DNA of 64,000 bases from Minisyncoccota bacterium (GCA_041659365.1 JBAZYH010000004.1:164-64163); one strand, 5' to 3'; numbered from the stretch's first letter, positions 1,613 to 60,510 are shown. Numbers and translations are program-made. Notes: generated by a model not told the origin, from the letters alone.

Positions 1613-1705
1613 CAAATGTGACTTATTTTTTAGCTTTTGATATAATGTTTAATGTTATTAATTAATAGAGATGTCATATTTTAAAGAATATGTCTAAATA
1701 GAGTT

Positions 1706-1738
1706 TATGTCGTGTTTCAATGGACACTACGCGACATG
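1706..1738. promoter_or_regulatory. Hairpin motif GTCGYG-TTCAATGGAC-GCGAC just upstream of the glutaredoxin-like gene
   Basis: atgtcgtgtttcaatggacactacgcgacat. An inverted near-copy lies at 45988-46020. The same loop motif occurs in the tandem hairpins at 7331-7590. Confidence 0.5.
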
Positions 1739-1758
1739 ATTCTGCAGAATCAAATCAC

Positions 1759-2919: not shown

Positions 2920-3010
2920 GAAGGTACTCCGACGTAGTAATCCAGGTTCATGTTTTATTTTAAAATTAATTCAACCTGGATTGCGACCACGTAAAAATGA
3001 TTACATTCAC
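2920..3010. repeat. Inverted pair of B-type hairpin repeat units
   Basis: tgtgtcattacgagaaggtactccgacgtagtaatccagg ... cctggattgcgaccacgtaaaaatgattacattcacgtggcacagcgtcaggatacttcctcgcaaagaca. Confidence 0.75.
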
Positions 3011-3121
3011 GTGGCACAGCGTCAGGATACTTCCTCGCAAAGACACTCAATAAACAACACAAATAAAAACACGAAGAATTTTCGCTTTGCGAAAATTCTT
3101 CGTGTTTTTACCTTATAAATT

Positions 3122-4512: not shown

Positions 4513-6760
4513 TCATTAGTAGATTCTTTTTCTCGTCATTAATAGATGTCCATATTTCTTCTGTAAGAAATGGCATAAAAGGATGTAGGGAAGTAATAAT
4601 AATTCTAATAGTTTTTAATAGGAATTGTTTTCTAGATTCTATTTCCATTGACGCGGATTCTTGCGGACTAGACGCGGAAGATGCGGAATCTAATGCAAAT
4701 ATTTTTTTACTTTCCTCAAGTATTACATCAGCAAAATTCTTCCATGCGTATTGATATATTTTATCTCCAGCCATGTAGAACCTGTAGTCTTCCATATCTT
4801 TTGTTATATCGGATAGGAGAGATTCCCTTTCTTCTATAAGTTTTTTATCTACTTCAGAATATTTATCAAAATTTTCTGAATATTTTGTATCCTTTGTCGA
4901 TTCAAGGACAAATCTAGTAATATTCCAAACCTTATTTGCAAAGTTTTTATAACCTTTTATTTTATCTTCTGAAATGTTCATATCTGTGCCTGGAGTATTA
5001 CCAATAATAAGAGACATTCTTCCAGCATCAGTACCAAATTTTGCTGAAATATCTAATGGATCCATATTATTACCAAGAGATTTAGACATTTTTCTTCCTT
5101 TTGCATCCCTAATCATTCCATGAAAATAAACCGTTTCAAATGGAATTGTTCCAAGGTTGTATCCGGTCATCATTATCATTCTTGATACCCAGAAAGGTAA
5201 AATATCATAACCAGTTTCTAAAACATTTGTTGGGTGATAAAAACCAAGATCATTTGTTTTTTCTGGCCAACCTAAAGTTGAGAAAGTCCAAAGTGCAGAA
5301 GAAAACCAAGTATCCAAAGTATCTTCATCTTGTACCCACCCTTCACCTTTTGGATTTTCTATATCACAAAATGTTTCATTTCCTTTATAATAAACTGGAA
5401 TACGATGACCATACCAAATTTGTCTTGAAATACACCAATCTCTGAGATTATCTATCCAGTGAAAATAAACTTTTTCAAAGAAATCAGGAATCATCTTTAT
5501 TTGACCATTTTCTACAGATTTTTTCATTATTTCTTTTAGTGTGACAGTATCTCCAGACTCAATACCTTTTATTTCTGAGTGTTGTATTTTAAATGATTTG
5601 CTAACAGATATAAACCATTGAAGCTTTGGTAACGGTTCTATTATTCCGCCGGTCCTTTCTGCAGTTGAAATATTTTGTTTAACAGATTCTTCTTTTTCTA
5701 AAAGTCCTTCTGTTTTTAGCCATTCTACGATAATCTCTCGTGCTTCTGTTGTTTTCTTTCCTAAAATGTTTTCTCCACCAACTGTCATTTTTGCTACTTC
5801 ATTAATAACAATTTTATCTTTTGGAAGATTGTGTCTCTCAGCCATTTCCCAGTCGATTGTGCTATGTGCAGGAGTAACGCCTAGCGCACCAGTACCAAAT
5901 TCTTTATCTACTTCTTTATCCGCTATAATTTTAATATGAATAGAAACTCCACAAAAAATTGCGTCGTATTCTTTTCCTATATATTTTTGGTAACGTTCAT
6001 CTTCTGGATGCACAGCAACAGCAACATCACCAACTTTAGTTTCTGGTCTTGTTGTTGATATTGAAATAGGGAAGTCTTTTGAATATTTAAAGGTATAAAA
6101 TTTTGCATCTCTTTCCTCATAAACTATTTCGTCATCAGAAATAACAGTTTGGCCTTTCGGATCCCAATTAACAATCCTGTATCCTTTATAAATAAGTCCG
6201 TCATCATACATCTTTTTGAAAACTGTACGAACGGCAAGGTTTCTCTTTTCATCAAGAGTAAAAGCTTCACGAGACCAATCACAAGAAGCTCCCATAGTTT
6301 TTGTTTGGGAGATAATTGTATCGTGACTTTCTTTTGCAAATTCTTTAATCCTATGAACTAATTCTTCACGTCCCAAATCAAATCTAGATTTATTCTCATT
6401 CTTTTTTATTTCTTTCTCAACTTTTGATTGGGTAGCAATACCTGCATGATCTGTACCTGGAAGCCAAAGAGTTTTCTTACCACGCATTCTGTTATAACGA
6501 ATCATTACATCTTCAACTGTAAGGGTGAGTGCATGCCCCATATGAAGTTTGCCAGTTACGTTAGCTGGGGGCATCATTATTGAATATTTTTCTTTGTGTC
6601 TTTCTGGTAGATTATCAGGATTAAAATAACCAGATTCTTCCCATAGCTTATATATTCTAGGTTCAGTTTCTTGTGGGTTATATGGCTTTAAAAATTTGCT
6701 TGCCACGTTTGAATTTTCACTTTGTTCTTTATTTATCATATTTTTTTTGTTTAATTCCAT
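4487..6760 (-). CDS. valS: Valyl-tRNA synthetase (short form lacking the C-terminal coiled coil)
   Basis: PPANVTGKLHMGHALTLTVEDVMIRYNRMRGKKTLWLPGTDHAGIATQ (HIGH region) and KMSKSLGN. ValRS-type editing and anticodon domains. Confidence 0.85.
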   Translation of the reverse strand: MELNKKNMINKEQSENSNVASKFLKPYNPQETEPRIYKLWEESGYFNPDNLPERHKEKYSIMMPPANVTGKLHMGHALTLTVEDVMIRYNRMRGKKTLWLPGTDHAGIATQSKVEKEIKKNENKSRFDLGREELVHRIKEFAKESHDTIISQTKTMGASCDWSREAFTLDEKRNLAVRTVFKKMYDDGLIYKGYRIVNWDPKGQTVISDDEIVYEERDAKFYTFKYSKDFPISISTTRPETKVGDVAVAVHPEDERYQKYIGKEYDAIFCGVSIHIKIIADKEVDKEFGTGALGVTPAHSTIDWEMAERHNLPKDKIVINEVAKMTVGGENILGKKTTEAREIIVEWLKTEGLLEKEESVKQNISTAERTGGIIEPLPKLQWFISVSKSFKIQHSEIKGIESGDTVTLKEIMKKSVENGQIKMIPDFFEKVYFHWIDNLRDWCISRQIWYGHRIPVYYKGNETFCDIENPKGEGWVQDEDTLDTWFSSALWTFSTLGWPEKTNDLGFYHPTNVLETGYDILPFWVSRMIMMTGYNLGTIPFETVYFHGMIRDAKGRKMSKSLGNNMDPLDISAKFGTDAGRMSLIIGNTPGTDMNISEDKIKGYKNFANKVWNITRFVLESTKDTKYSENFDKYSEVDKKLIEERESLLSDITKDMEDYRFYMAGDKIYQYAWKNFADVILEESKKIFALDSASSASSPQESASMEIESRKQFLLKTIRIIITSLHPFMPFLTEEIWTSINDEKKNLLMIESWPIKS

Positions 6761-6956
6761 CGTAAGATTTTAACAGCGAACTATTCTCACAAAATTCTTT
6801 ACGTGGTCATTCACCCCATTAGAGTTTATATTTTGTGTTTTGTTTTCGTTCATTTTTTTATAATAAAATACACTTAGTTTTAGTGCTCCGTTTGATTAAA
6901 CTCTAACGAGGCAGGTTCTAAGATAATATCAGAAAAGAGTTATTTTTGAAAGAAAA

Positions 6957-6985
6957 AGAGGTCTCTTAGTGAGACCTTCTTTTTG
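6957..6985. terminator. Bidirectional terminator hairpin
   Basis: aagaggtctcttagtgagaccttcttttt. Confidence 0.6.
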
Positions 6986-6999
6986 GGTGACAAATAAAG

Positions 7000-7278
7000 T
7001 TAACTCCTGATAATTTTCCATTTTGTGGATGATCCTTTTCCTCTGAGCCTACAAACTTCAAGAAGTGTTTTGAGGGTTCGTGTTGTTCCACTATTGTCTA
7101 AGTTTGCAATCTTTGCAATTTGTTCGGTAGTGGCCGTACCACCAAGAGACTGTAGTGCATCAAAAACTCTTCTTTGACGCTCGTTCACTTTTTTGAGCCT
7201 TTCTTTGTTTGTGGTTTGCTTCTGGATATATAGTATTCTGATTTTGAGATAAGTAAAGAAAATTTTTACTTTATACAT
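7000..7278 (-). CDS. Small winged-helix DNA-binding regulator (start uncertain)
   Basis: RQRRVFDALQSLGGTATTEQIAKIANLDNSGTTRTLKTLLEV is a wHTH-like segment. The 5' part of the ORF overlaps a hairpin repeat, so the true start is probably internal or non-ATG. Confidence 0.45.
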   Translation of the reverse strand: MYKVKIFFTYLKIRILYIQKQTTNKERLKKVNERQRRVFDALQSLGGTATTEQIAKIANLDNSGTTRTLKTLLEVCRLRGKGSSTKWKIIRS

Positions 7279-7279
7279 T

Positions 7280-7312
7280 TGTCATTCCTGCGTAGGCAGG
7301 AATCCATAATTA
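7280..7312. repeat. A-type hairpin repeat unit
   Basis: tgtcattcctgcgtaggcaggaatccataat. Confidence 0.75.
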
Positions 7313-7330
7313 ATTCAATATCAATATATA

Positions 7331-7590
7331 AGGGAAGTTTTCTATTTTATTTGCGTCCCCCTAAAAGGACCCGCCCATTTTAATACAAATGTTTCGGGCA
7401 AGCAGTTGGGTGACGTGATTTTGCATTAAATATCTTAATAGATTAAAGGAAATATTCTATTTAGTTTGCGTCGCGCTTCAATGGACGATTGTGCGACGTG
7501 CTAATAAATTTAATAAATACATATATGGAAATTATCTATTAGTTTGCGTCCCCCCCAATTGGACAGTTGGGTGACGTGATCTTGCTAGAT
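7331..7590 (+). repeat. Three tandem copies of a hairpin-containing unit of about 80-120 bp (GGAAAtwTCTATTtAGTTTGCGTC ... GACGTG)
   Basis: Copies start near 7331, 7448 and 7528. Each has a conserved 5' box (ttctatt(t)agtttgcgtc), a GC stem (cgtcgc/gcgacg or cgtcccc/gggtgacg) and a GGAC-containing loop (ttcaatggac, caattggaca, aaaggaccc). Confidence 0.7.
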
Positions 7591-7860
7591 CAAAAAAGAC
7601 CGTGCCCGCAGTTGTACAAACGCTGGGGACACGGTCGAAATGAGAGAACAGGTGATAAAGATCACCCTTTTCTCTTGCGATACTTCGGATCTCTCATTTT
7701 ATCTCGATGAAGGGGTAAGGTGAGCCTTACTTTTACTCTTTCGCTCGCCACTACTTGAGTCCTTCTTTTTGTGACGGGCAATACCTTTCGGTGAGCCCGA
7801 GCTACAAACCGATGTCCGCAGATCTCACATTCACGGGTCAGTTTATTAGATTCTATACTT
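7590..7860. other. GC-rich (relative to the genome) structured non-coding segment of unknown function
   Basis: Multiple stable hairpins: gaccgtg...cacggtc, gtgataaagatcac, gagagaa...ttctctt. The minus strand carries caagtagtggcgagcgaaag, which resembles the conserved 23S rRNA motif CAGTAGCGGCGAGCGAA. Confidence 0.4.
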
Positions 7861-7989
7861 TTTATATATTAAGTCAAAGAGAATAGCCTTATTTTATCTA
7901 GCCCCTTGACCTGTTTTTATGATAGTTGTAAAATTTATATGGAATCGTAAATTAACAACACAATAGGTGGACAACCAAAGGAGGTCCTA

Positions 7990-8460
7990 ATGAATAAGGA
8001 AGTTCTTATAAAGATTGATTATTCTTTCAAAACTTTTTTTAGTAAAAAGAAAATCATTAGGAAGCTTTCTAATAAGAAAAAATGGTTAAGGAGGCGTTTA
8101 CTTGATAGAGTGAAGATGTTCTCTGATACTTTCAATGAGTCAACAGATGAACATAAAAGAGAGATGAATTTTTATCTCACCTATCTTTTTGAAGAGATTA
8201 CCTCTGAGCAAACTGTAAAAGAAATAGCTAACATGGGTTTTAGACCAGTCACTGCGTGGGAATTACAGTGTTTAGCTATTGAAGATGCTCGTTTGCCCGT
8301 GGAGTCTCATGTTCTGGCTCTCGGTTCTATTCATGAATATATTTTATCTGGTGGAAAACCAGAGATGTGTGTTGTTGGTTTTGTTAATTGTGAATTATGT
8401 ATAGAAAGGTGGAATGATAAAAGACAAACTGATCAGATTTTTGTTGTTACTGATATGTGA
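7990..8460 (+). CDS. Hypothetical protein (156 aa)
   Basis: ORF with a terminator hairpin at 8466-8492. No recognisable domain. Confidence 0.4.
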   Translation: MNKEVLIKIDYSFKTFFSKKKIIRKLSNKKKWLRRRLLDRVKMFSDTFNESTDEHKREMNFYLTYLFEEITSEQTVKEIANMGFRPVTAWELQCLAIEDARLPVESHVLALGSIHEYILSGGKPEMCVVGFVNCELCIERWNDKRQTDQIFVVTDM

Positions 8461-8557
8461 CAACAAAAGGGCGTCTCGCTTTGTAGACGCTCTTTTTAAA
8501 TTTTAAAAAGATAAAAACCACCATCTTTTTTAAGAGATGATGGTTCCATACAAATCT

Positions 8558-8911
8558 TCATTGAAACAGAGTATTTTGTCCCAAGAAGATTATTAAACTT
8601 GCTGTAATAATAGAGAAACCAAGAACTTCAGGAGTAATTTTGTTTAGGTTATTTTTTCTGAAGTTTAAATAACAAAGTACTACACAAGTGGTTATCATTA
8701 CAAAAGTAAGAGAAGTTGTTTTGAGTGATAATATCAAGCCTGCTTTTCTTGTAATAAAATCATCAGGCCTCATTACAATAAAAGCAAATTCTAGACTAAT
8801 CACCAGCCAGAAGGTGGCTAACATGATCCCATCGGTGAATCCTTTGAGTGATTTCATAGTAGCCTCCTTTATGAAGAGCGGATAACTTGTTAGGGAACTG
8901 TTCCCAAACAT
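8558..8911 (-). CDS. Hypothetical small membrane protein
   Basis: Three predicted TM segments. Confidence 0.35.
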   Translation of the reverse strand: MFGNSSLTSYPLFIKEATMKSLKGFTDGIMLATFWLVISLEFAFIVMRPDDFITRKAGLILSLKTTSLTFVMITTCVVLCYLNFRKNNLNKITPEVLGFSIITASLIIFLGQNTLFQ

Positions 8912-8968
8912 AATTAGCTTTTCCTTATATATAATATCACGCTTCGTATATAAAAAGTAAACAAATAA

Positions 8969-10261
8969 TTATAAACTCAAATTTCCATTGGCTTTAAAAT
9001 CTGTTTCTGGTTTTTTGCCAGATAAAATATTTAGATATCCCGCGACTGCTATCATAAAAGCATTGTCCGTAGAAGCACTAAATTCTGGAATCATAAGTTC
9101 AACATGAATATCTTCTGCGAGTTTTGCAAAATCACTTCTTATTTTTTTATTTGCACTTACACCACCACCGATTATTATAGTTTGTGCTCCGTATTGTTCA
9201 ACGGCTTGTTGGGTTTTTTTAATTATTACTTCTACTACAGCATCTTCAAATTCTCGAGCTATTTCTTGTTTGATAGAATCAGTTAATTTGGCTAAAACAT
9301 TTTTTTCAGAAAAATGTTCGCCCGACTCGTCTTTCTGTGAAGACGAGTTTAGGGTAATTTTTTGTACTGTATAAAGTACAGCAGTTTTTATTCCTGAGAA
9401 AGAAAAATTTAAATCATGAGAATGTATCATTGGACGAGGAAGAGGGAACGCGGATTTACGCGGACCAGACGCAGAATCATGCGGATGTTCAAGTCTATCC
9501 TTTTCTGCGAGTTTAGATATTTGTGGACCACCAGGATATGGTAGACCTAGTATTCTTGCAACCTTATCAAAAGCTTCTCCGATAGCATCATCTCTTGTGC
9601 TTCCAATTATTTCATATTTTTGGTTTTCTTTACTTAGGACAAGTTGGGTATGCCCACCGCTTATGAGGAGAGCAATGACGGGATAATTAGGGGATTGAAT
9701 GTTGAATGTTGGATGTTGAATATTAGTTTCTTTACATTCACTATTCAATATTCCACATTCTCGTTGTAGCATGGCTACAACGACATGTCCTTCCATGTGG
9801 TTTACAGGGATTATAGGGATGTTCCAGGCTTCTGATAATGCTTTTGCGAAGCATATACCAACCCAGAGTGCTGGTTCAAGCCCAGGGCCATTGGTGACCG
9901 CTATAGCATCTATGTCTGGTTTTTCTATTTTCTCAATGAGTTCAATTAAATCTTCAGATAGATCATTTTCTCTTGCTAGAATTTCTTTTATTCTTTCTTT
10001 TCTTGAATCTCGAATCATAAATCTTGAATCCTTTTTCATCCCGGCTTCCTCAAGACATTTTTCAAGTTGGGGAGTAAGGTTTAGAGCATGTTCCCTTTTT
10101 GCCATCATAGGATAAACACCACCATACTGTGCATGTATAGCTATTTGAGAATATAATTGGTTCCCAAGTATTTTTATTTTTGAACCAACAGAATCATTTT
10201 CTGTTTCAATAATACAAACCCCTGTTTCATCGCATGATGTTTCTATGCCTAAGATTTTCAT
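8969..10261 (-). CDS. tsaD: tRNA N6-adenosine threonylcarbamoyltransferase TsaD (Kae1/Gcp family) with lineage-specific insertions
   Basis: MKILGIETSCDETGVCII, HMEGHV, SGGHTQL, GEAFDKVARILGLPYPGGPQISKLAE, GGVSANKKIR. At 430 aa it is about 90 aa longer than typical, with inserted low-complexity segments. Confidence 0.9.
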   Translation of the reverse strand: MKILGIETSCDETGVCIIETENDSVGSKIKILGNQLYSQIAIHAQYGGVYPMMAKREHALNLTPQLEKCLEEAGMKKDSRFMIRDSRKERIKEILARENDLSEDLIELIEKIEKPDIDAIAVTNGPGLEPALWVGICFAKALSEAWNIPIIPVNHMEGHVVVAMLQRECGILNSECKETNIQHPTFNIQSPNYPVIALLISGGHTQLVLSKENQKYEIIGSTRDDAIGEAFDKVARILGLPYPGGPQISKLAEKDRLEHPHDSASGPRKSAFPLPRPMIHSHDLNFSFSGIKTAVLYTVQKITLNSSSQKDESGEHFSEKNVLAKLTDSIKQEIAREFEDAVVEVIIKKTQQAVEQYGAQTIIIGGGVSANKKIRSDFAKLAEDIHVELMIPEFSASTDNAFMIAVAGYLNILSGKKPETDFKANGNLSL

Positions 10262-16354: not shown

Positions 16355-16624
16355 TGTTTGGTTTTCTGGGATTATTTTATATAAACCTTGCATTAAAAGT
16401 GTATATTGATATAATCAAATGACACAATTTAATAAGTAGAGACCTAACCCTTTTAAGATTTATTTTGAAAGGTATGGTCAAAAACGCACGATACAAAAAA
16501 CCCTCACATTAGGGCGTATCGTGCGTTGTATTGGGAAACTAATACAGAGGTTTAAAAACCTTCCTAGTGTGGGGCTTTTTCGTATCTACACACTAGACAT
16601 TATTAGTCTATTAACTTAAAAAAA

Positions 16625-37189: not shown

Positions 37190-37250
37190 ATAATTAAACC
37201 TGGATTGCCACAGGTGATTACACCTTCGCAAAGACGCACAAAAAAATTGG
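37190..37250. repeat. B-type hairpin repeat unit between trxB and ftsZ
   Basis: aacctggattgccacaggtgattacaccttcgcaaagacgcacaaaaaaa. Confidence 0.8.
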
Positions 37251-39264: not shown

Positions 39265-39315
39265 AAAATTCTGGATTCCCGTCTGCACGGGAATGACACA
39301 ATACATAGTTGCATT
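39265..39315. repeat. A-type hairpin repeat unit
   Basis: ctggattcccgtctgcacgggaatgacacaatacatagttgcatt. Confidence 0.75.
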
Positions 39316-39839: not shown

Positions 39840-39900
39840 TTTTGTGTATAAATACAAACCTGGATTGCCACGCTTCGCTCGCAATGACAATACAAAAAAG
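39840..39900. repeat. B-type hairpin repeat unit
   Basis: aacctggattgccacgcttcgctcgcaatgacaatacaaaaaag. Confidence 0.75.
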
Positions 39901-41179: not shown

Positions 41180-41290
41180 TTAATTATATCAAAGACATTT
41201 TTTAATAGCGAGAGAAAATTATAAAAAACTGTTTATTACTTATTTTAATTAAGTTTTTAGGTTATAGGTTTTAGGTTCAAGAAAAAAACT

Positions 41291-41432
41291 GGATTGCTTC
41301 GCTTTGCTCGCAAAGACAATAAAAAACACGAAAGAGTTTTATAAAACTCTTTCGTGTGTCTTTGCGAGCAAAGCGAAGCAATCCAGGGTTGTATTTAATG
41401 AATCATGGATTCCGGTCTTCACCAGAACAACA
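41291..41432. repeat. Perfect 100-bp palindrome built from two inverted B-type units around a central hairpin, plus an A-like unit
   Basis: ctggattgcttcgctttgctcgcaaagacaataaaaaacacgaaagagttttataaaactctttcgtgtgtctttgcgagcaaagcgaagcaatccag. Confidence 0.85.
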
Positions 41433-42129: not shown

Positions 42130-43338
42130 TTATTCAGATAATTTTTTGATATATTCTGCTAAATCTTTTATTGGTATTGTTTTCTGTGTCCTAGTTGAAT
42201 TTTCTCTTACCATTACTGAATTTTCTAATGACTCTTTTTTACCCATTATTATTACATAAGGTACTTTTGTCTTTTCAACTAATGCAAACTGACTTCCAAA
42301 CTTATCTCTACCAAGCATGTGGTGTACAAAAACTTTTTCTTTTTTTAGTGTTTCTATAACATCAAGGCTTTTGTGTTTTGCCTCATCACCAAGCTGTATG
42401 TAAAAGGCGATTGGTTTTGTAATTTTTGATATTTTTTTAATTGTTGCCTTTTTCTTTAAAAATATTTTTATTCCTGCACATGGTATGTCTTTTTTGTTTC
42501 CTATTTTTTGTGCAAAACCATCATTTCTAAAACCAACAGCAAGTATTTCTTCATTTGATGCATCTTTTATTTTATATATGGTACCAAAACAGTATTTTTT
42601 ATCTGGGACGAGACAGTTGTTTATTTTATAAGGAATTTCCATTGTCTCTATATATTCTAAAATTTCTTTGAAATGTAATCTGCTTTCATCAGATAAACAA
42701 CTTATGGATGTCGGTGACGCGTCCTTTATCTTGGCACAATCACATTCTTCACATGACAAAACATAAAAAGGATCTTTTTTAAAATTCTGTCTACAATGTG
42801 CTGGTAGTGAGTTTAGATTTTTTTTAAAATAATTTACTAATTCTTTTGAAAATTTATTTACTGATTCTTTGTCACCAATAGTATTGATTTCTATTGAGAA
42901 ATCTTTGTAGCCATTGTCTTTAAGTATAGATAAAGTTGTTTTGATAAGAAGTGCTTCGGCTATACTCTTTTCTGTACCCATCACTTCAAGGTTTATAGTG
43001 TCTTTTGCACGCTCTTTAATATTTGTACTTTCATGCATAAGCATTATTGGTTGTGACTGAGAAGACATTTCATTTTCAATGTACCATCTTATTAGAGAAG
43101 CTCTTTCTTCTGCAAAAGTTTGTGAGAATATCCAAGACAAATCATTGTTTTTTGAAAAGCTGTCTTTTAGGGGTGATACTTTGTTTATGTCCTCTTTGGA
43201 TATTTGAAGATTTTTTATTGGTGTAAAACCGTAGTAGATTACAGCTTCTGAGTTTTTATTTATAGGAAGAAACTCGATAAACTTTGATGAGTCTTTTTCT
43301 TTTTTGAGTTTTTTTTCTGCTTTTTTATCTTTTTTCAT
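42130..43338 (-). CDS. HisRS-like class II aminoacyl-tRNA synthetase paralog (HisZ-like; catalytic motifs unclear)
   Basis: C-terminal class II anticodon-binding domain (VPYVIIMGKKESLENSVMVRENSTRTQKTIPIKDL). The N-terminal core is divergent with Cys-rich insertions. Confidence 0.4.
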   Translation of the reverse strand: MKKDKKAEKKLKKEKDSSKFIEFLPINKNSEAVIYYGFTPIKNLQISKEDINKVSPLKDSFSKNNDLSWIFSQTFAEERASLIRWYIENEMSSQSQPIMLMHESTNIKERAKDTINLEVMGTEKSIAEALLIKTTLSILKDNGYKDFSIEINTIGDKESVNKFSKELVNYFKKNLNSLPAHCRQNFKKDPFYVLSCEECDCAKIKDASPTSISCLSDESRLHFKEILEYIETMEIPYKINNCLVPDKKYCFGTIYKIKDASNEEILAVGFRNDGFAQKIGNKKDIPCAGIKIFLKKKATIKKISKITKPIAFYIQLGDEAKHKSLDVIETLKKEKVFVHHMLGRDKFGSQFALVEKTKVPYVIIMGKKESLENSVMVRENSTRTQKTIPIKDLAEYIKKLSE

Positions 43339-43396
43339 TTGATCTTGTAAGATTATTTGGAACGCGACATAAACTAAATTAATTTCTTTATTTTTA

Positions 43397-44114: not shown

Positions 44115-44741
44115 ATGAACTATATAATTGTTGGTCTTGGTAACCCAGGACAAGAATATGAAGATACAAGGCATAATACTGGCTGGATGGCGGTAGATGC
44201 TCTAGTCAAAAGAATTTCCGCCAAAGGCGGATCCGCCTCTGGCGGAGGTGCGGAAGAATGGAAAGAAGATAAGAAAATTAAATCTGAAACGGCAAAAGCA
44301 AAAATAGGTAAAAATACTGCTTTACTTATAAAACCAAAAACTTTTATGAATAAGTCGGGCGATGCTGTAAGAAGTTTGGTAAAAACAAAAAAAGTGGCAG
44401 AGACTTTGGTAGTTGTTCATGATGATATGGATATACCTTTTGGTAAGATTAAATTATCTTTTAATAAAAGTTCTGGTGGGCACAGGGGAGTCGAGTCTAT
44501 TATAAAAGCTGTAAAGACGGAAGGTTTTATAAGGATGAGAGTTGGTATCTGTCCGACTACCGCGAGTGGTAAATTAAAAAAGCCACAAGGAGAAGAGGCT
44601 GTGATAAAACTTATTCTTGATAAAATTAAAGCAAAGGATTTGGATGATTGGAAGAAAATAATGAAAAGAGCAGGTGAGGGGCTTGAACTTATAGTTAGTG
44701 AGGGGAAGGATAAGGCGATGGGTTATATAAATAGTTTATAA
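44115..44741 (+). CDS. pth: Peptidyl-tRNA hydrolase with a Gly/Lys-rich insertion
   Basis: MNYIIVGLGNPGQEYEDTRHNTGWMAVDAL. The catalytic His is in the RHN motif. Confidence 0.85.
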   Translation: MNYIIVGLGNPGQEYEDTRHNTGWMAVDALVKRISAKGGSASGGGAEEWKEDKKIKSETAKAKIGKNTALLIKPKTFMNKSGDAVRSLVKTKKVAETLVVVHDDMDIPFGKIKLSFNKSSGGHRGVESIIKAVKTEGFIRMRVGICPTTASGKLKKPQGEEAVIKLILDKIKAKDLDDWKKIMKRAGEGLELIVSEGKDKAMGYINSL

Positions 44742-44859
44742 AGTTAAAAGTTCATAAAGTTCATAAAGTAAATAGAAAAGGGGTTTTCGCTTTGCGAAAA
44801 CCCCCTTTTGTATTTAATAAAACTAAGGTGAGGCCTTGAATCTTTAAAAAGGCGTCTCC

Positions 44860-45065
44860 TTAGTTTTATGTATTGTCATTCCCTTGAAGAAGGGAATCCA
44901 TTGCGCGTCATTGCGAGGTACGAAGCAATCCAGGTTTAATTAATTAGTCTCGTTTTTCAAAAAAAATAACACACAATTTTAACCTGGATTGCGACGTCAG
45001 AGTACTTCCTCGCAAAGACATACAAAAAAATGGATTCCTGCCTACGTGGGAATGATAAATCTAAT
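44860..45065. repeat. Composite hairpin-repeat element with terminal inverted repeats (inverted A, inverted B, spacer, B, A)
   Basis: tattgtcattccc... ...gggaatgataaat termini. Internal gtcattgcgaggtacgaagcaatccagg and cctggattgcgacgtcagagtacttcctcgcaaagaca. Confidence 0.8.
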
Positions 45066-45227
45066 ACATTGACAAATTACAATACAGCGTGTATAATTAT
45101 ATATAATATAGTTCTTTAATAAAAACAGTTAGTCATAGCCAAAAGTCTTTAGAATATTGAGGTCTCTTGGCTATGACTACTACTGTTGTAGATCAAGCAA
45201 AACACAAAAAAGAAAGGATGATGACAA

Positions 45228-45902
45228 GTGAAAAACACACTCGTTACATCTCTGAATGGTCAAGTGCAAGCGATCATTGATATGGTCGGCATTGCAGCGA
45301 TGAACACGGTTAGAATCCGAAGTGAAGAACTCACTACGGCAGCTCGTCAGCGAGTGCTCGCTCAAGGTGACAAGTTTACCATTGAGCTATCAGCGTTTAT
45401 CACTGCCAAGATGGCTGAACTCGCCGAACAAGTTATTGGCTATCTCAAACTCATCTCCGGCGACGAAACCATCATAATCGGCGAAACCGATGGCACAGAC
45501 ACAATCGCTCTTGCGAGGGACGTGTTTACAGGTTGGGTTGACCCTGACTTCGTGAACTACGGTACAGACGTCAAAGGCCAACCGACCAAGGAAACGAAAG
45601 TACAAGTTCTAGAGATGATCAAGGACGGCAACCTCGCTCAGATCTTTGGTGGTTTTGGTGAGAATCTCGACCGCTTATGCTTGTCGCAAAGTCAAATTAT
45701 CCGTTTTGTGAAGGATCACAGTAAGTGGCTCCTCACGGGTAGTAATCATGGAACTTTCTTTTTATTCAAGGTACAAGGAGAGTTCTTTATCGCGGACGTG
45801 CTTTTGGGTGAGAGTATTATCGGTGTAGATGCTCGACATTTGTTGGATGGCGTTGTCTGGGATGCTGATCGTCGCCGTCGTGTTGTGGTTCCACAATTGT
45901 GA
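45228..45902 (+). CDS. Hypothetical protein in a GC-rich (~50%) segment, probable GTG start
   Basis: Compositionally foreign ORF bracketed by hairpin-repeat elements. Terminator cagctcgtttatc...gataaacgagctg at 45926-45968. Confidence 0.45.
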   Translation: MKNTLVTSLNGQVQAIIDMVGIAAMNTVRIRSEELTTAARQRVLAQGDKFTIELSAFITAKMAELAEQVIGYLKLISGDETIIIGETDGTDTIALARDVFTGWVDPDFVNYGTDVKGQPTKETKVQVLEMIKDGNLAQIFGGFGENLDRLCLSQSQIIRFVKDHSKWLLTGSNHGTFFLFKVQGEFFIADVLLGESIIGVDARHLLDGVVWDADRRRRVVVPQL

Positions 45903-46089
45903 CACTCAGTCACTTTTCTTGTACAGCTCGTTTATCTTTCTACTTCGGTGGACTGATAAACGAGCTGTTTTTGCTTCTGCAGAAGCATGTCGCGTAGTGT
46001 CCATTGAAACGCGACATAAATTAATAGACAATTTCCTTATATAAATTTTATACTCATCTACGCCATGGCGTAGATGAGCATTTTTGTTT

Positions 46090-46200
46090 GAGTTGTCTTT
46101 GCGAGCGAATGCGAAGCAATCCAGGATTGTATTTTATTTTAAATTAATTAATTAACCTGGATTGCTACGGGGTACCTCGCAATGACAATACAAAAGTGGA
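46090..46200. repeat. Palindromic pair of B-type hairpin units
   Basis: tgtctttgcgagcgaatgcgaagcaatccagg ... cctggattgctacggggtacctcgcaatgacaatacaaaag. Confidence 0.8.
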
Positions 46201-46310
46201 TTATTTTTTTATCAAAATTTTAATTTTTAAGATAAATTACAAAAGGCGCGCCCCGAAGGGGCGCGTCTTTTAGTTTGTATTTACTTTATAAACTTTCTAC
46301 TTTTAACTTT

Positions 46311-60454: not shown

Positions 60455-60510
60455 TTTGTATGTCTTTGCGAGAAGGTACTCCGACGTGGCAATCCAGGTT
60501 AGTATTAATA
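60455..60510. repeat. B-type hairpin repeat unit (inverted)
   Basis: tgtctttgcgagaaggtactccgacgtggcaatccaggttagtat. Confidence 0.75.

Follow-up and report, generated by a model that had tools for sequence, protein, structure and literature searches.

The question raised by this locus is what kind of element is formed by the three tandem hairpins that lie at 7332-7591 of the window (the whole 64-kb stretch of DNA that we analyzed), next to a gene for a small wHTH protein. The initial annotation of the sequence had offered three roles, namely an operator array for the adjacent wHTH protein, iteron-like replication or partition sites, or a family of small structured RNAs. Our analysis considered the predicted fold, the recurrence of the motif in this and other genomes and the corresponding intervals of close relatives. 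The explanation we prefer, to which we would assign a probability of roughly one half, is that the array is a cluster of three subtypes of previously undescribed, REP/BIME-like or otherwise non-autonomous, structured extragenic repeats of Patescibacteria, with a repeat unit of ~70-105 nt. At the level of sequence and predicted fold, the idea of a structured family is supported, while the specific regulatory interpretations of the array (operator, iteron) are not, and the analysis brings no new regulatory circuit to light here.

Architecture and covariation of the repeated module

Direct reading of positions 7280-7600 bore out the three tandem hairpin modules, all co-oriented on the plus strand, at 7332-7434, 7448-7499 and 7527-7591. 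The module consists of a semi-conserved leader, a 9-bp hairpin (P1) and, directly after P1, a 5-bp hairpin (P2) with the consensus GAUYY-UGCA-RRAUC. The P1 loop contains an invariant GGAC, usually within UUCAAUGGACA, and the P1 stem takes the form GCGUCGCGC/GUGCGACGU or GCGUCCCCC/GGGUGACGU, the second of which carries a conserved C.U mismatch. The common leader noticed earlier is indeed present in all three units, as GGAAATnTCTATT(T)AGTTTG, and the stems given earlier, CGTCGC/GCGACG and CGTCCCC/GGGTGACG, were found as parts of the 9-bp P1. The second hairpin, P2 (GATYYTGCARRATC), had been missed.

Unit 1 (7332-7434) is of the long CCCC type, with a leader at 7332-7352, P1 at 7353-7416 including the conserved C.U mismatch at 7358/7411, and a degenerate P2 at 7417-7434. 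Its P1 loop comprises AAAAGGAC and an optional 33-nt domain at 7371-7403; the insertion had been put at 45 nt, and the entire loop measures 46 nt. The closest relative of this unit is found at 403-509 of L011 (L numbers refer to fetched loci), and the 33-nt domain is confined to P1 loops of this repeat family, namely those of unit 1 and of two copies in L011. Unit 2 (7448-7499) is of the GCGC type, with a leader at 7448-7467, P1 arms at 7468-7476 and 7491-7499, the loop UUCAAUGGACGAUU and no P2. Unit 3 (7527-7591), of the short CCCC type, has its leader at 7527-7545, P1 arms at 7546-7554 and 7569-7577 enclosing the loop CCAAUUGGACAGUU, and P2 arms at 7578-7582 and 7587-7591 with the loop UGCU. 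When plus-strand folding was compared with shuffled sequences, units 2 and 3 folded better (z=-2.55 and z=-2.59, respectively), while unit 1 did no better than its shuffles (z=-0.05). The complements folded (n=2) were weaker in one case (z=-1.6) and at background in the other (z=-0.6). A covariance model built from 16 copies recovered 7444-7519 with 61.6 bits (E=1.4e-12) and 7523-7596 with 77.5 bits (E=1.4e-16), and unit 1 scored low with this model because of its loop insert. The 10-mer TTCAATGGAC by itself was not significant.

Covariation was assessed on 22 copies from 15 sources and 13 distinct loci, mostly Patescibacteria MAGs. Across these copies, 94.8% of cells are paired, and changes on both sides were seen in 9 of 14 pairs, four of them in P1 and the other five making up the whole of P2. 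None of 500 shuffles attained the observed pairing and covariation values, and shifting the register by 1-3 columns lowered pairing to 16-52%. The pattern used for the genome scan fixed only the end of the leader, the 5' arm and the loop. All true copies have a P2 and a 3' arm, left free by the pattern, that pairs with the 5' arm, and this pairing should be considered an independent result. The pairing, the covariation and the shuffle and register controls together argue that the hairpins have been selected as hairpins. Conservation of sequence as such is seen in the GGAC-containing P1 loop and in the GUC/GAC base of the stem, while the helices are kept through compensatory changes. The initial annotation had regarded a lack of compensatory change as fatal to its proposal; both helices, however, covary across the 22 copies.

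The copies fall into subtypes according to the stem (GCGC or CCCC), the presence or absence of the 33-nt loop domain, and the leader, which may be of type A, of type B (with a further covarying hairpin, P0) or missing. These subtypes are common to several genomes and are mixed inside one array. Several further features were tried and rejected. A pseudoknot between leader and loop (UCUAUU with AAUGGA) is 76% paired but shows zero compensatory change; P0 is not conserved in the common leader type, the genuine cases being limited to leaders of type B (window 1675-1692, L007 and L039); and a short peptide starting at the loop ATG is contradicted by frames and stops that disagree between copies.

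Recurrence, insertion sites and turnover

In the 64-kb window, the covariance model yielded five full copies and one decayed copy, all of them extragenic. Four of these copies scored 61.6-94.5 bits (E from 1e-12 to 1e-20) in the covariance-model search that the initial annotation had proposed; beyond unit 1 and the decayed copy, the remaining matches in the window were noise. The dispersed copy at 1667-1751 (plus strand; 76.7 bits for 1681-1756) is an insertion within the glutaredoxin 5' UTR, between a TATAAT box and the ATG at 1759. Its P1 (1707-1715/1729-1737) corresponds to the hairpin reported earlier at 1706-1738, which is followed by P2 (1738-1742/1747-1751) and preceded by a third hairpin, P0 (CATATT/AATATG, 1675-1680/1687-1692), that the earlier reading had overlooked. 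The best score, 94.5 bits, belongs to 45968-46040 on the minus strand, and direct reading agreed with the related hairpin noted at 45988-46020 after a GC-rich ORF, which it placed at 45987-46018. The P2 end of this copy adjoins the A-run of the terminator at 45928-45972 of that convergent ORF (45228-45902). The decayed copy at 43336-43393 (minus strand, 22.7 bits, E=0.007) retains the leader, the 5' arm of P1 and a partial loop, followed by P2, with the remaining loop and the 3' arm deleted, and it takes up the spacer that separates a signal-peptidase gene from the gene that follows (ATG at 43338).

The surroundings of these copies deserve a brief description. The window is AT-rich (~32% GC) and holds tRNAs, an RNase P RNA and a match to the LOOT RNA at 16441-16562 (plus strand, 83.8 bits). 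The ORF at 45228-45902 (plus strand, 224 aa, no Pfam match) has 46-50% GC, as compared with 32% for the genome, a perfect TTGACA-17-TATAAT promoter (~45070-45098), its own terminator and stacks of hairpin repeats on its flanks, and was probably acquired horizontally. Other hairpin-repeat families share the intergenic regions, one with 6 copies in the window (TCATYCC...GGRAT; GTCATTCC...GGAATCC), to which the hairpin at 7281-7304 belongs, and one with 13 copies (CTGGATTGC; CCTGGATTGC...CGCAAAGAC). Copies of these families, of which there are at least two, were seen at 44-155, 698-733, 2976-3044, 37200-37235, 39275-39296, 39860-39868, 41289-41386, 44741-45060, 46095-46165 and 60462-60497; several of them often occupy adjacent positions in one spacer, and their Rfam matches (FtrB, rpsL_ricks and a Wolbachia sRNA) are weak.

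A scan of 185,579 species genomes with ARTTTRYGTCNNNNTTCAATGGAC returned 12 loci. Seven are true copies, found in MAGs labelled Paceibacterota, Minisyncoccia, Saccharibacteria and, in one case, just "bacterium", and the remaining loci reflect a coding coincidence in a flavoprotein motif. A metagenome scan added ~10 copies and loci fetched via ValRS homologues another 6, whereas viral contigs gave two chance matches and no true copy. Over all scans and relatives, the source labels are mostly Paceibacterota/Minisyncoccota, with two labelled Saccharibacteria; NCBI now treats Candidatus Paceibacterota as phylum Minisyncoccota. The motif thus recurs at unrelated loci and in other lineages, a point on which the initial annotation had staked its proposal. 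The module is nearly identical in MAGs with different phylum labels, which needs either strong selection or horizontal spread. Rfam left the module unmatched at gathering cut-offs over the whole window, as did a permissive search (E<=10) of 7250-7990, L007 and 45900-46300, and our literature searches on hairpin repeats and structured RNAs in Patescibacteria returned no description of this element.

Comparison among relatives revealed considerable turnover. The site in the glutaredoxin 5' UTR is filled in the window and in L039, with the same left junction, carries a remnant in L020 and is empty in L031, L034, L036, L037 and L038. Upstream of a DivIC-like gene, the site is filled in L020 and L039 and empty in the window. 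The hsp20-purA spacer is filled by a copy in L041 and is empty in L042, where it contains a hairpin and the ATG is preceded at 7 nt by a TATAAT box; this arrangement (7020-7056) suggests a leaderless purA mRNA in L042. Relatives carry different P1 subtypes between similar flanks at two syntenic sites, which points to exchange between copies. Conservation of module versus flank was uninformative, as the syntenic pairs L031/L034 and L020/L039 are 97-98% identical throughout. Truncated copies with breakpoints inside the P1 loop were found in the window (43336-43393), in L003 (4406-4458) and in L007, duplicated P2 ends in L014, L007 and L028, and tandem clusters, all of direct repeats, in the window, L003 and L007. 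The hairpin CATCTACGCCATGGCGTAGATG precedes the module both at 46053-46078 of the window and at 4385-4412 of L020, which means that some copies travel within a larger composite.

Relative to the flanking genes, copies are found in both orientations, and at five loci, the focal array included, both neighbors are on the other strand. An A-run of at least four starts no more than 14 nt from the P2 end in 14 of 21 copies, as compared with a background of 20% (p=4e-6), and in ~11 copies this run corresponds, on the other strand, to the terminator T-run of a convergent gene. Six copies in sense orientation are followed, 2-7 nt after P2, by a start codon; four of these six lie before genes that start with ATGAAAAAA (Met-Lys-Lys), so that targeting of A-runs would explain them. 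Neither a target-site duplication nor an exact 5' boundary could be defined among the copies, apart from a possible AAAA duplication seen in a homopolymer. When ORFs of at least 90 aa with ATG starts only were considered, four of 25 tabulated copies lay within 15 nt of an ORF, and existing gene calls overlap copies in the case of glutaredoxin in L039 and purA in L041.

The tsaD-valS interval and the competing explanations

The array lies between a terminator and the next promoter. The terminator, at 7592-7636, is intrinsic and belongs to a small RNA on the minus strand; it comprises a hairpin (7598-7636) and T6 (7597-7592). The small RNA gene (7592-7877, minus strand, ~240 nt, with a GC-richer stretch at 7592-7835) lies between tsaD and wHTH/valS and has a sigma-70-type promoter, TTGACT-16-TAGAAT, at 7877->7850, several hairpins and a strong terminator. 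The gene is conserved, with compensatory changes at four pairs, in L031 (~9410-9655), L041 (~8840-9095) and, at reduced length, L034; neither strand has an Rfam match. The reverse complement of unit 3 directly follows T6, the next base being the insertion junction, and after it come units 2 and 1, the hairpin at 7281-7304, which is of a different interspersed family (GTCATTCCTGCGTAGGCAGGAATC), and then wHTH upstream sequence like that of L031 and L041. Rfam gave a weak, partial FtrB match on the hairpin at 7281-7304 only. In L031 and L041 the order is tsaD, small RNA, terminator, ~70 nt without a module, a 63-aa wHTH gene and valS, so that the window carries ~310 extra nt. Taken together, the order of the modules and the sequence of the relatives place units 1-3 in a ~310-nt insertion that separates the terminator from the wHTH upstream region. 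The T-run was present before the insertion, as the empty site in L031 has it.

Ten relatives were fetched (L031-L042; ValRS 75-83% identical), and none of the ten has a module between tsaD and valS. The wHTH homologue, of 63 aa, is kept in three of them (L031, L041 and L042; ValRS 81-82% identical), the small RNA being absent from L042, and in none of the three does a module lie beside it. The window protein and its L031 homologue are 39% identical (E=4e-12). These homologues came through synteny, as a word index of 5.8 billion proteins returned only the query itself. The wHTH ORF, which had been given as 7000-7278 (it lies on the minus strand), is probably over-extended; its start is most likely GTG 7182 rather than ATG 7278, because the alignment with the 63-aa homologues, L031 among them, begins there (MNERQRRVFDALQSLGG...). 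The interval as a whole is a variable hotspot, measuring 173 nt in L040 (1532-1705), ~680 nt in L031 (9321-10001) and 2.2 kb in the window (6760-8969), where ORFs 7990-8460 and 8558-8911 are added; L042 has two membrane ORFs resembling 8558-8911.

With no module at this interval in the ten relatives, the operator and the iteron proposals both fail. Three relatives keep the wHTH gene with no module adjacent, and modules occur at unrelated loci; copies are dispersed, lie in either orientation to genes and occupy UTRs and the sides of terminators, whereas iterons or partition sites would be direct repeats gathered at a single replication or partition locus beside rep or par genes. That the array is a set of operators or iterons specific to the wHTH gene, or else a guide-RNA array of the TIGR-Tas or CRISPR-like kind, is accordingly very improbable. 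The former has in its favor that the array adjoins the small wHTH gene, and against it the three homologues in L031, L041 and L042 that lack an array. The latter could draw on the presence, in a Patescibacteria genome, of tandem stem-loops whose palindromic stems vary; the loops, however, are 13-14 nt long and conserved across genomes, which leaves no space for a pair of variable spacers of 8-12 nt each, the "spacers" between units consist of the shared leader, neighboring ORFs are without any Pfam match and thus have no Nop domain, and single copies are dispersed. Resemblances to parS, attC, dif, an oriT nic-site and the CRISPR I-C repeat amount to partial words, and all were dropped.

One might also consider the module as DNA, that is, as a promoter and operator on the opposite strand, in which the reverse complement of the loop would serve as -35 (TTGAAG/TTGAAA), the reverse complement of the leader, 16-17 bp apart from it, as -10 (TAGAAT/GACAAT/GATAAT), and P1 as an operator over the -35. 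The module would then follow a terminator and precede the next gene (wHTH, lepA or a 221-aa gene), an order that is in fact seen on the other strand at five or six loci, and a consensus scan does give TTGAAG-16-TAGAAT at 7481->7454 (minus strand) and TTGAAA-17-GACAAT at 46004-46032 (plus strand). We nonetheless find this unlikely, although such a promoter (TTGAAR, 16-17 bp, GAYAAT) may exist in some copies. The -35 is lost in variants (TTAAGG, TTGGGG, TTTAGG) while GGAC is invariant; TCTAT, the part of the leader that is conserved best, lies in the spacer and outside the hexamers; and a dimeric regulator that reads sequence would not yield covariation between half-sites. No such promoter or target exists in copies with the 33-nt insert or in leaderless copies (L004, L006, L009, L041), nor do copies that face gene ends or tRNAs have such a target, and the stretch of wHTH upstream sequence with homology to L031 and L041 is located downstream of the modules. 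Two other promoter types were rejected, a sigma-54 promoter (GG...TTGCA) for its spacing of 22 rather than 12, and a forward-strand sigma-70 promoter (TGGACA, 18-19 bp, CARRAT) for a spacing that is too long and is broken by the loop insert.

A more serious, though still tentative, alternative is that the module acts as RNA, being a protein-recognized hairpin in UTRs and intercistronic spacers, transcribed from the plus strand, that would form a processing or stabilizing point. An RNA-binding protein or a nuclease would recognize the GGAC loop that P1 displays, and P2 would stand before starts that have no Shine-Dalgarno sequence; several genes of this lineage have none, including the glutaredoxin gene with or without the module (1640-1761). 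By analogy, the tandem array could act as a sponge like CsrB/RsmZ, with GGA in each leader and loop, and single modules might be compared to tRNA punctuation. The covariation of both helices around a conserved loop sequence fits this explanation, as do the better folding of the plus strand than of its complement, a P1 base pair that is G.U or A-U in 22 of 22 copies, a second GGA in 17 of 22 leaders and the direct, rather than alternating, arrangement of units. The six sense copies 2-7 nt before an ATG, at starts that lack a Shine-Dalgarno sequence, include two spacers that consist wholly of the module and could reflect an RNA-level role in translation or processing, and the copy at 403-509 of L011 lies in a 3' UTR ahead of a bidirectional terminator. 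In addition, ultra-small prokaryotes from groundwater have been reported to have csrA among their highly expressed genes (PMC9938205).

Several observations, however, weigh against a role as RNA. The five loci with both neighbors on the other strand, the focal array among them, are difficult to reconcile with it, and no canonical promoter or terminator was found around the units on the plus strand; the structured RNA family of the initial annotation is supported in part, through its recurrence and covarying helices. The ATG-adjacent copies are mostly those at ATGAAAAAA starts, and the module is dispensable at those genes that relatives have without it. The pair next to the P1 base is C.A in 4 copies, a mismatch that would be a G.U wobble on the opposite strand. 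No CsrA or Hfq gene was found within the ~440 kb searched, and the surroundings of GGAC, with an invariant C after GGA and an extra base before it, are a poor fit to the CsrA consensus. A bolder version, in which a dedicated protein would read the GGAC loop of a Patescibacteria-wide recognition element, cut or anchor by P2 and be titrated by arrays, seems doubtful to us. If true, such punctuation would release or mark mRNAs with a start codon 2-7 nt downstream, in genomes where many genes have no Shine-Dalgarno sequence, and modules adjoining terminators would protect 3' ends.

To return to the extragenic-repeat explanation that we prefer, new copies are placed with the P2 end against an oligo-A run, whether the complement of a terminator T-run or the A-run of a Met-Lys-Lys start. 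At the focal locus, a block of three subtypes with a hairpin of another family (7281-7591) was inserted exactly after the T-run of the small RNA terminator and before the wHTH upstream region. Spread may be due to a trans-acting enzyme or a recombination process that recognizes the folded hairpin with its conserved loop; recognition of the folded strand by such a mobilizing activity would account for the conservation of fold and loop even where the spacer is not transcribed. The cluster would have no specific regulatory tie to the wHTH gene, and modules would exert at most generic effects on neighboring transcripts, such as stabilizing hairpins or insulation. Searches with tblastn, using the IS608 and IS200 TnpA proteins and the E. 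coli RAYT, found no mobilizing gene in the window or in ~377 kb of loci, and it should be noted that the ~440 kb searched for enzyme genes are a small part of these genomes. What counts against a REP/BIME-like nature is that the units are direct and that the loop is the most conserved part, features that are more typical of an RNA hairpin recognized by protein or RNA.

Whichever explanation holds, the family is well defined, with two covarying helices and an invariant loop, and is absent from Rfam. Patescibacteria genomes are tiny and have little spare DNA, yet the window holds at least three interspersed hairpin-repeat families. Recognizing the family averts mis-annotation, such as glutaredoxin and wHTH ORFs that are falsely extended at the N-terminus, and accounts for intergenic length variation between close relatives. 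For an uncultivated group, it also offers a handle on a hairpin-recognizing activity, which could reside in a mobilizing enzyme or in an RNA-binding protein.

Relation to known repeat and RNA systems

TIGR-Tas stem-loop arrays have been described in Patescibacteria (Faure et al. 2025, PMC12045711), each unit being defined by two variable 8-12-nt spacers and box C/D motifs inside the loop. The array under study resembles them in its tandem stem-loops with variable palindromic stems and in its host lineage. Its loops of 13-14 nt, however, are near-identical across genomes and too short for dual spacers, and a Pfam scan of the wHTH ORF and of ORFs 7990-8460 and 8558-8911 gave no Nop domain, so that a TIGR-Tas array was excluded. 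A CRISPR array is not supported either, as the segments between hairpins are the shared leader, the hairpins differ among units and solitary copies occur elsewhere. The same applies to iterons or partition sites, given copies at six places in 64 kb in unrelated contexts; no rep or par Pfam domains were found in the array neighbors scanned.

Among RNA systems, CsrB/RsmZ and CsrA-bound leaders likewise have repeated hairpins with GGA in the loop, GGA in linkers and, in some cases, a location in 5' UTRs. The present array differs in that no canonical promoter or terminator was found to frame it on the plus strand, its core is longer than ANGGA and has an invariant C, the sequence searched contains no csrA gene, and many copies are antisense to both neighbors. 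The TwoAYGGAY RNA motif (Rfam RF01731), reportedly described in Weinberg et al. 2010, is similar in its AYGGAY hairpin loops (AUGGAC in the common subtype here) and in having no fixed gene association. It has two AYGGAY hairpins, whereas here such a loop is present in P1 only, P2 having the loop UGCA, and other subtypes carry UUGGAC, UCGGAC or AAGGAC; the lineage is also different, and cmscan gave no match to this motif at E<=10 in the three regions searched permissively.

IS200/IS605-derived palindrome-associated elements and class C group II introns insert beside terminator hairpins. With these the family shares orientation-specific insertion directly beside a terminator T-run, subterminal hairpins, and a lack of terminal inverted repeats and of a clear target duplication; in contrast to them, its units are ~70-105 nt long and contain no transposase, reverse transcriptase or intron domains. 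REP/BIME elements are repetitive extragenic palindromes mobilized by RAYT Y1 transposases, and classic REPs form clusters in alternating orientation with variable loops. Here, by contrast, clustered units are direct (the array and the pairs in L003 and L007), conservation is highest in the loop, a leader and two or three distinct hairpins make up each unit, and no RAYT gene was found in the window and ~377 kb of loci, copy density being derived from fragments alone. The likeness nonetheless extends to short imperfect palindromes that are extragenic only, both dispersed and locally clustered, often just past terminators or between convergent genes, with subtypes that coexist in one genome, a hairpin kept by compensatory change and a conserved stem mismatch in one subtype.
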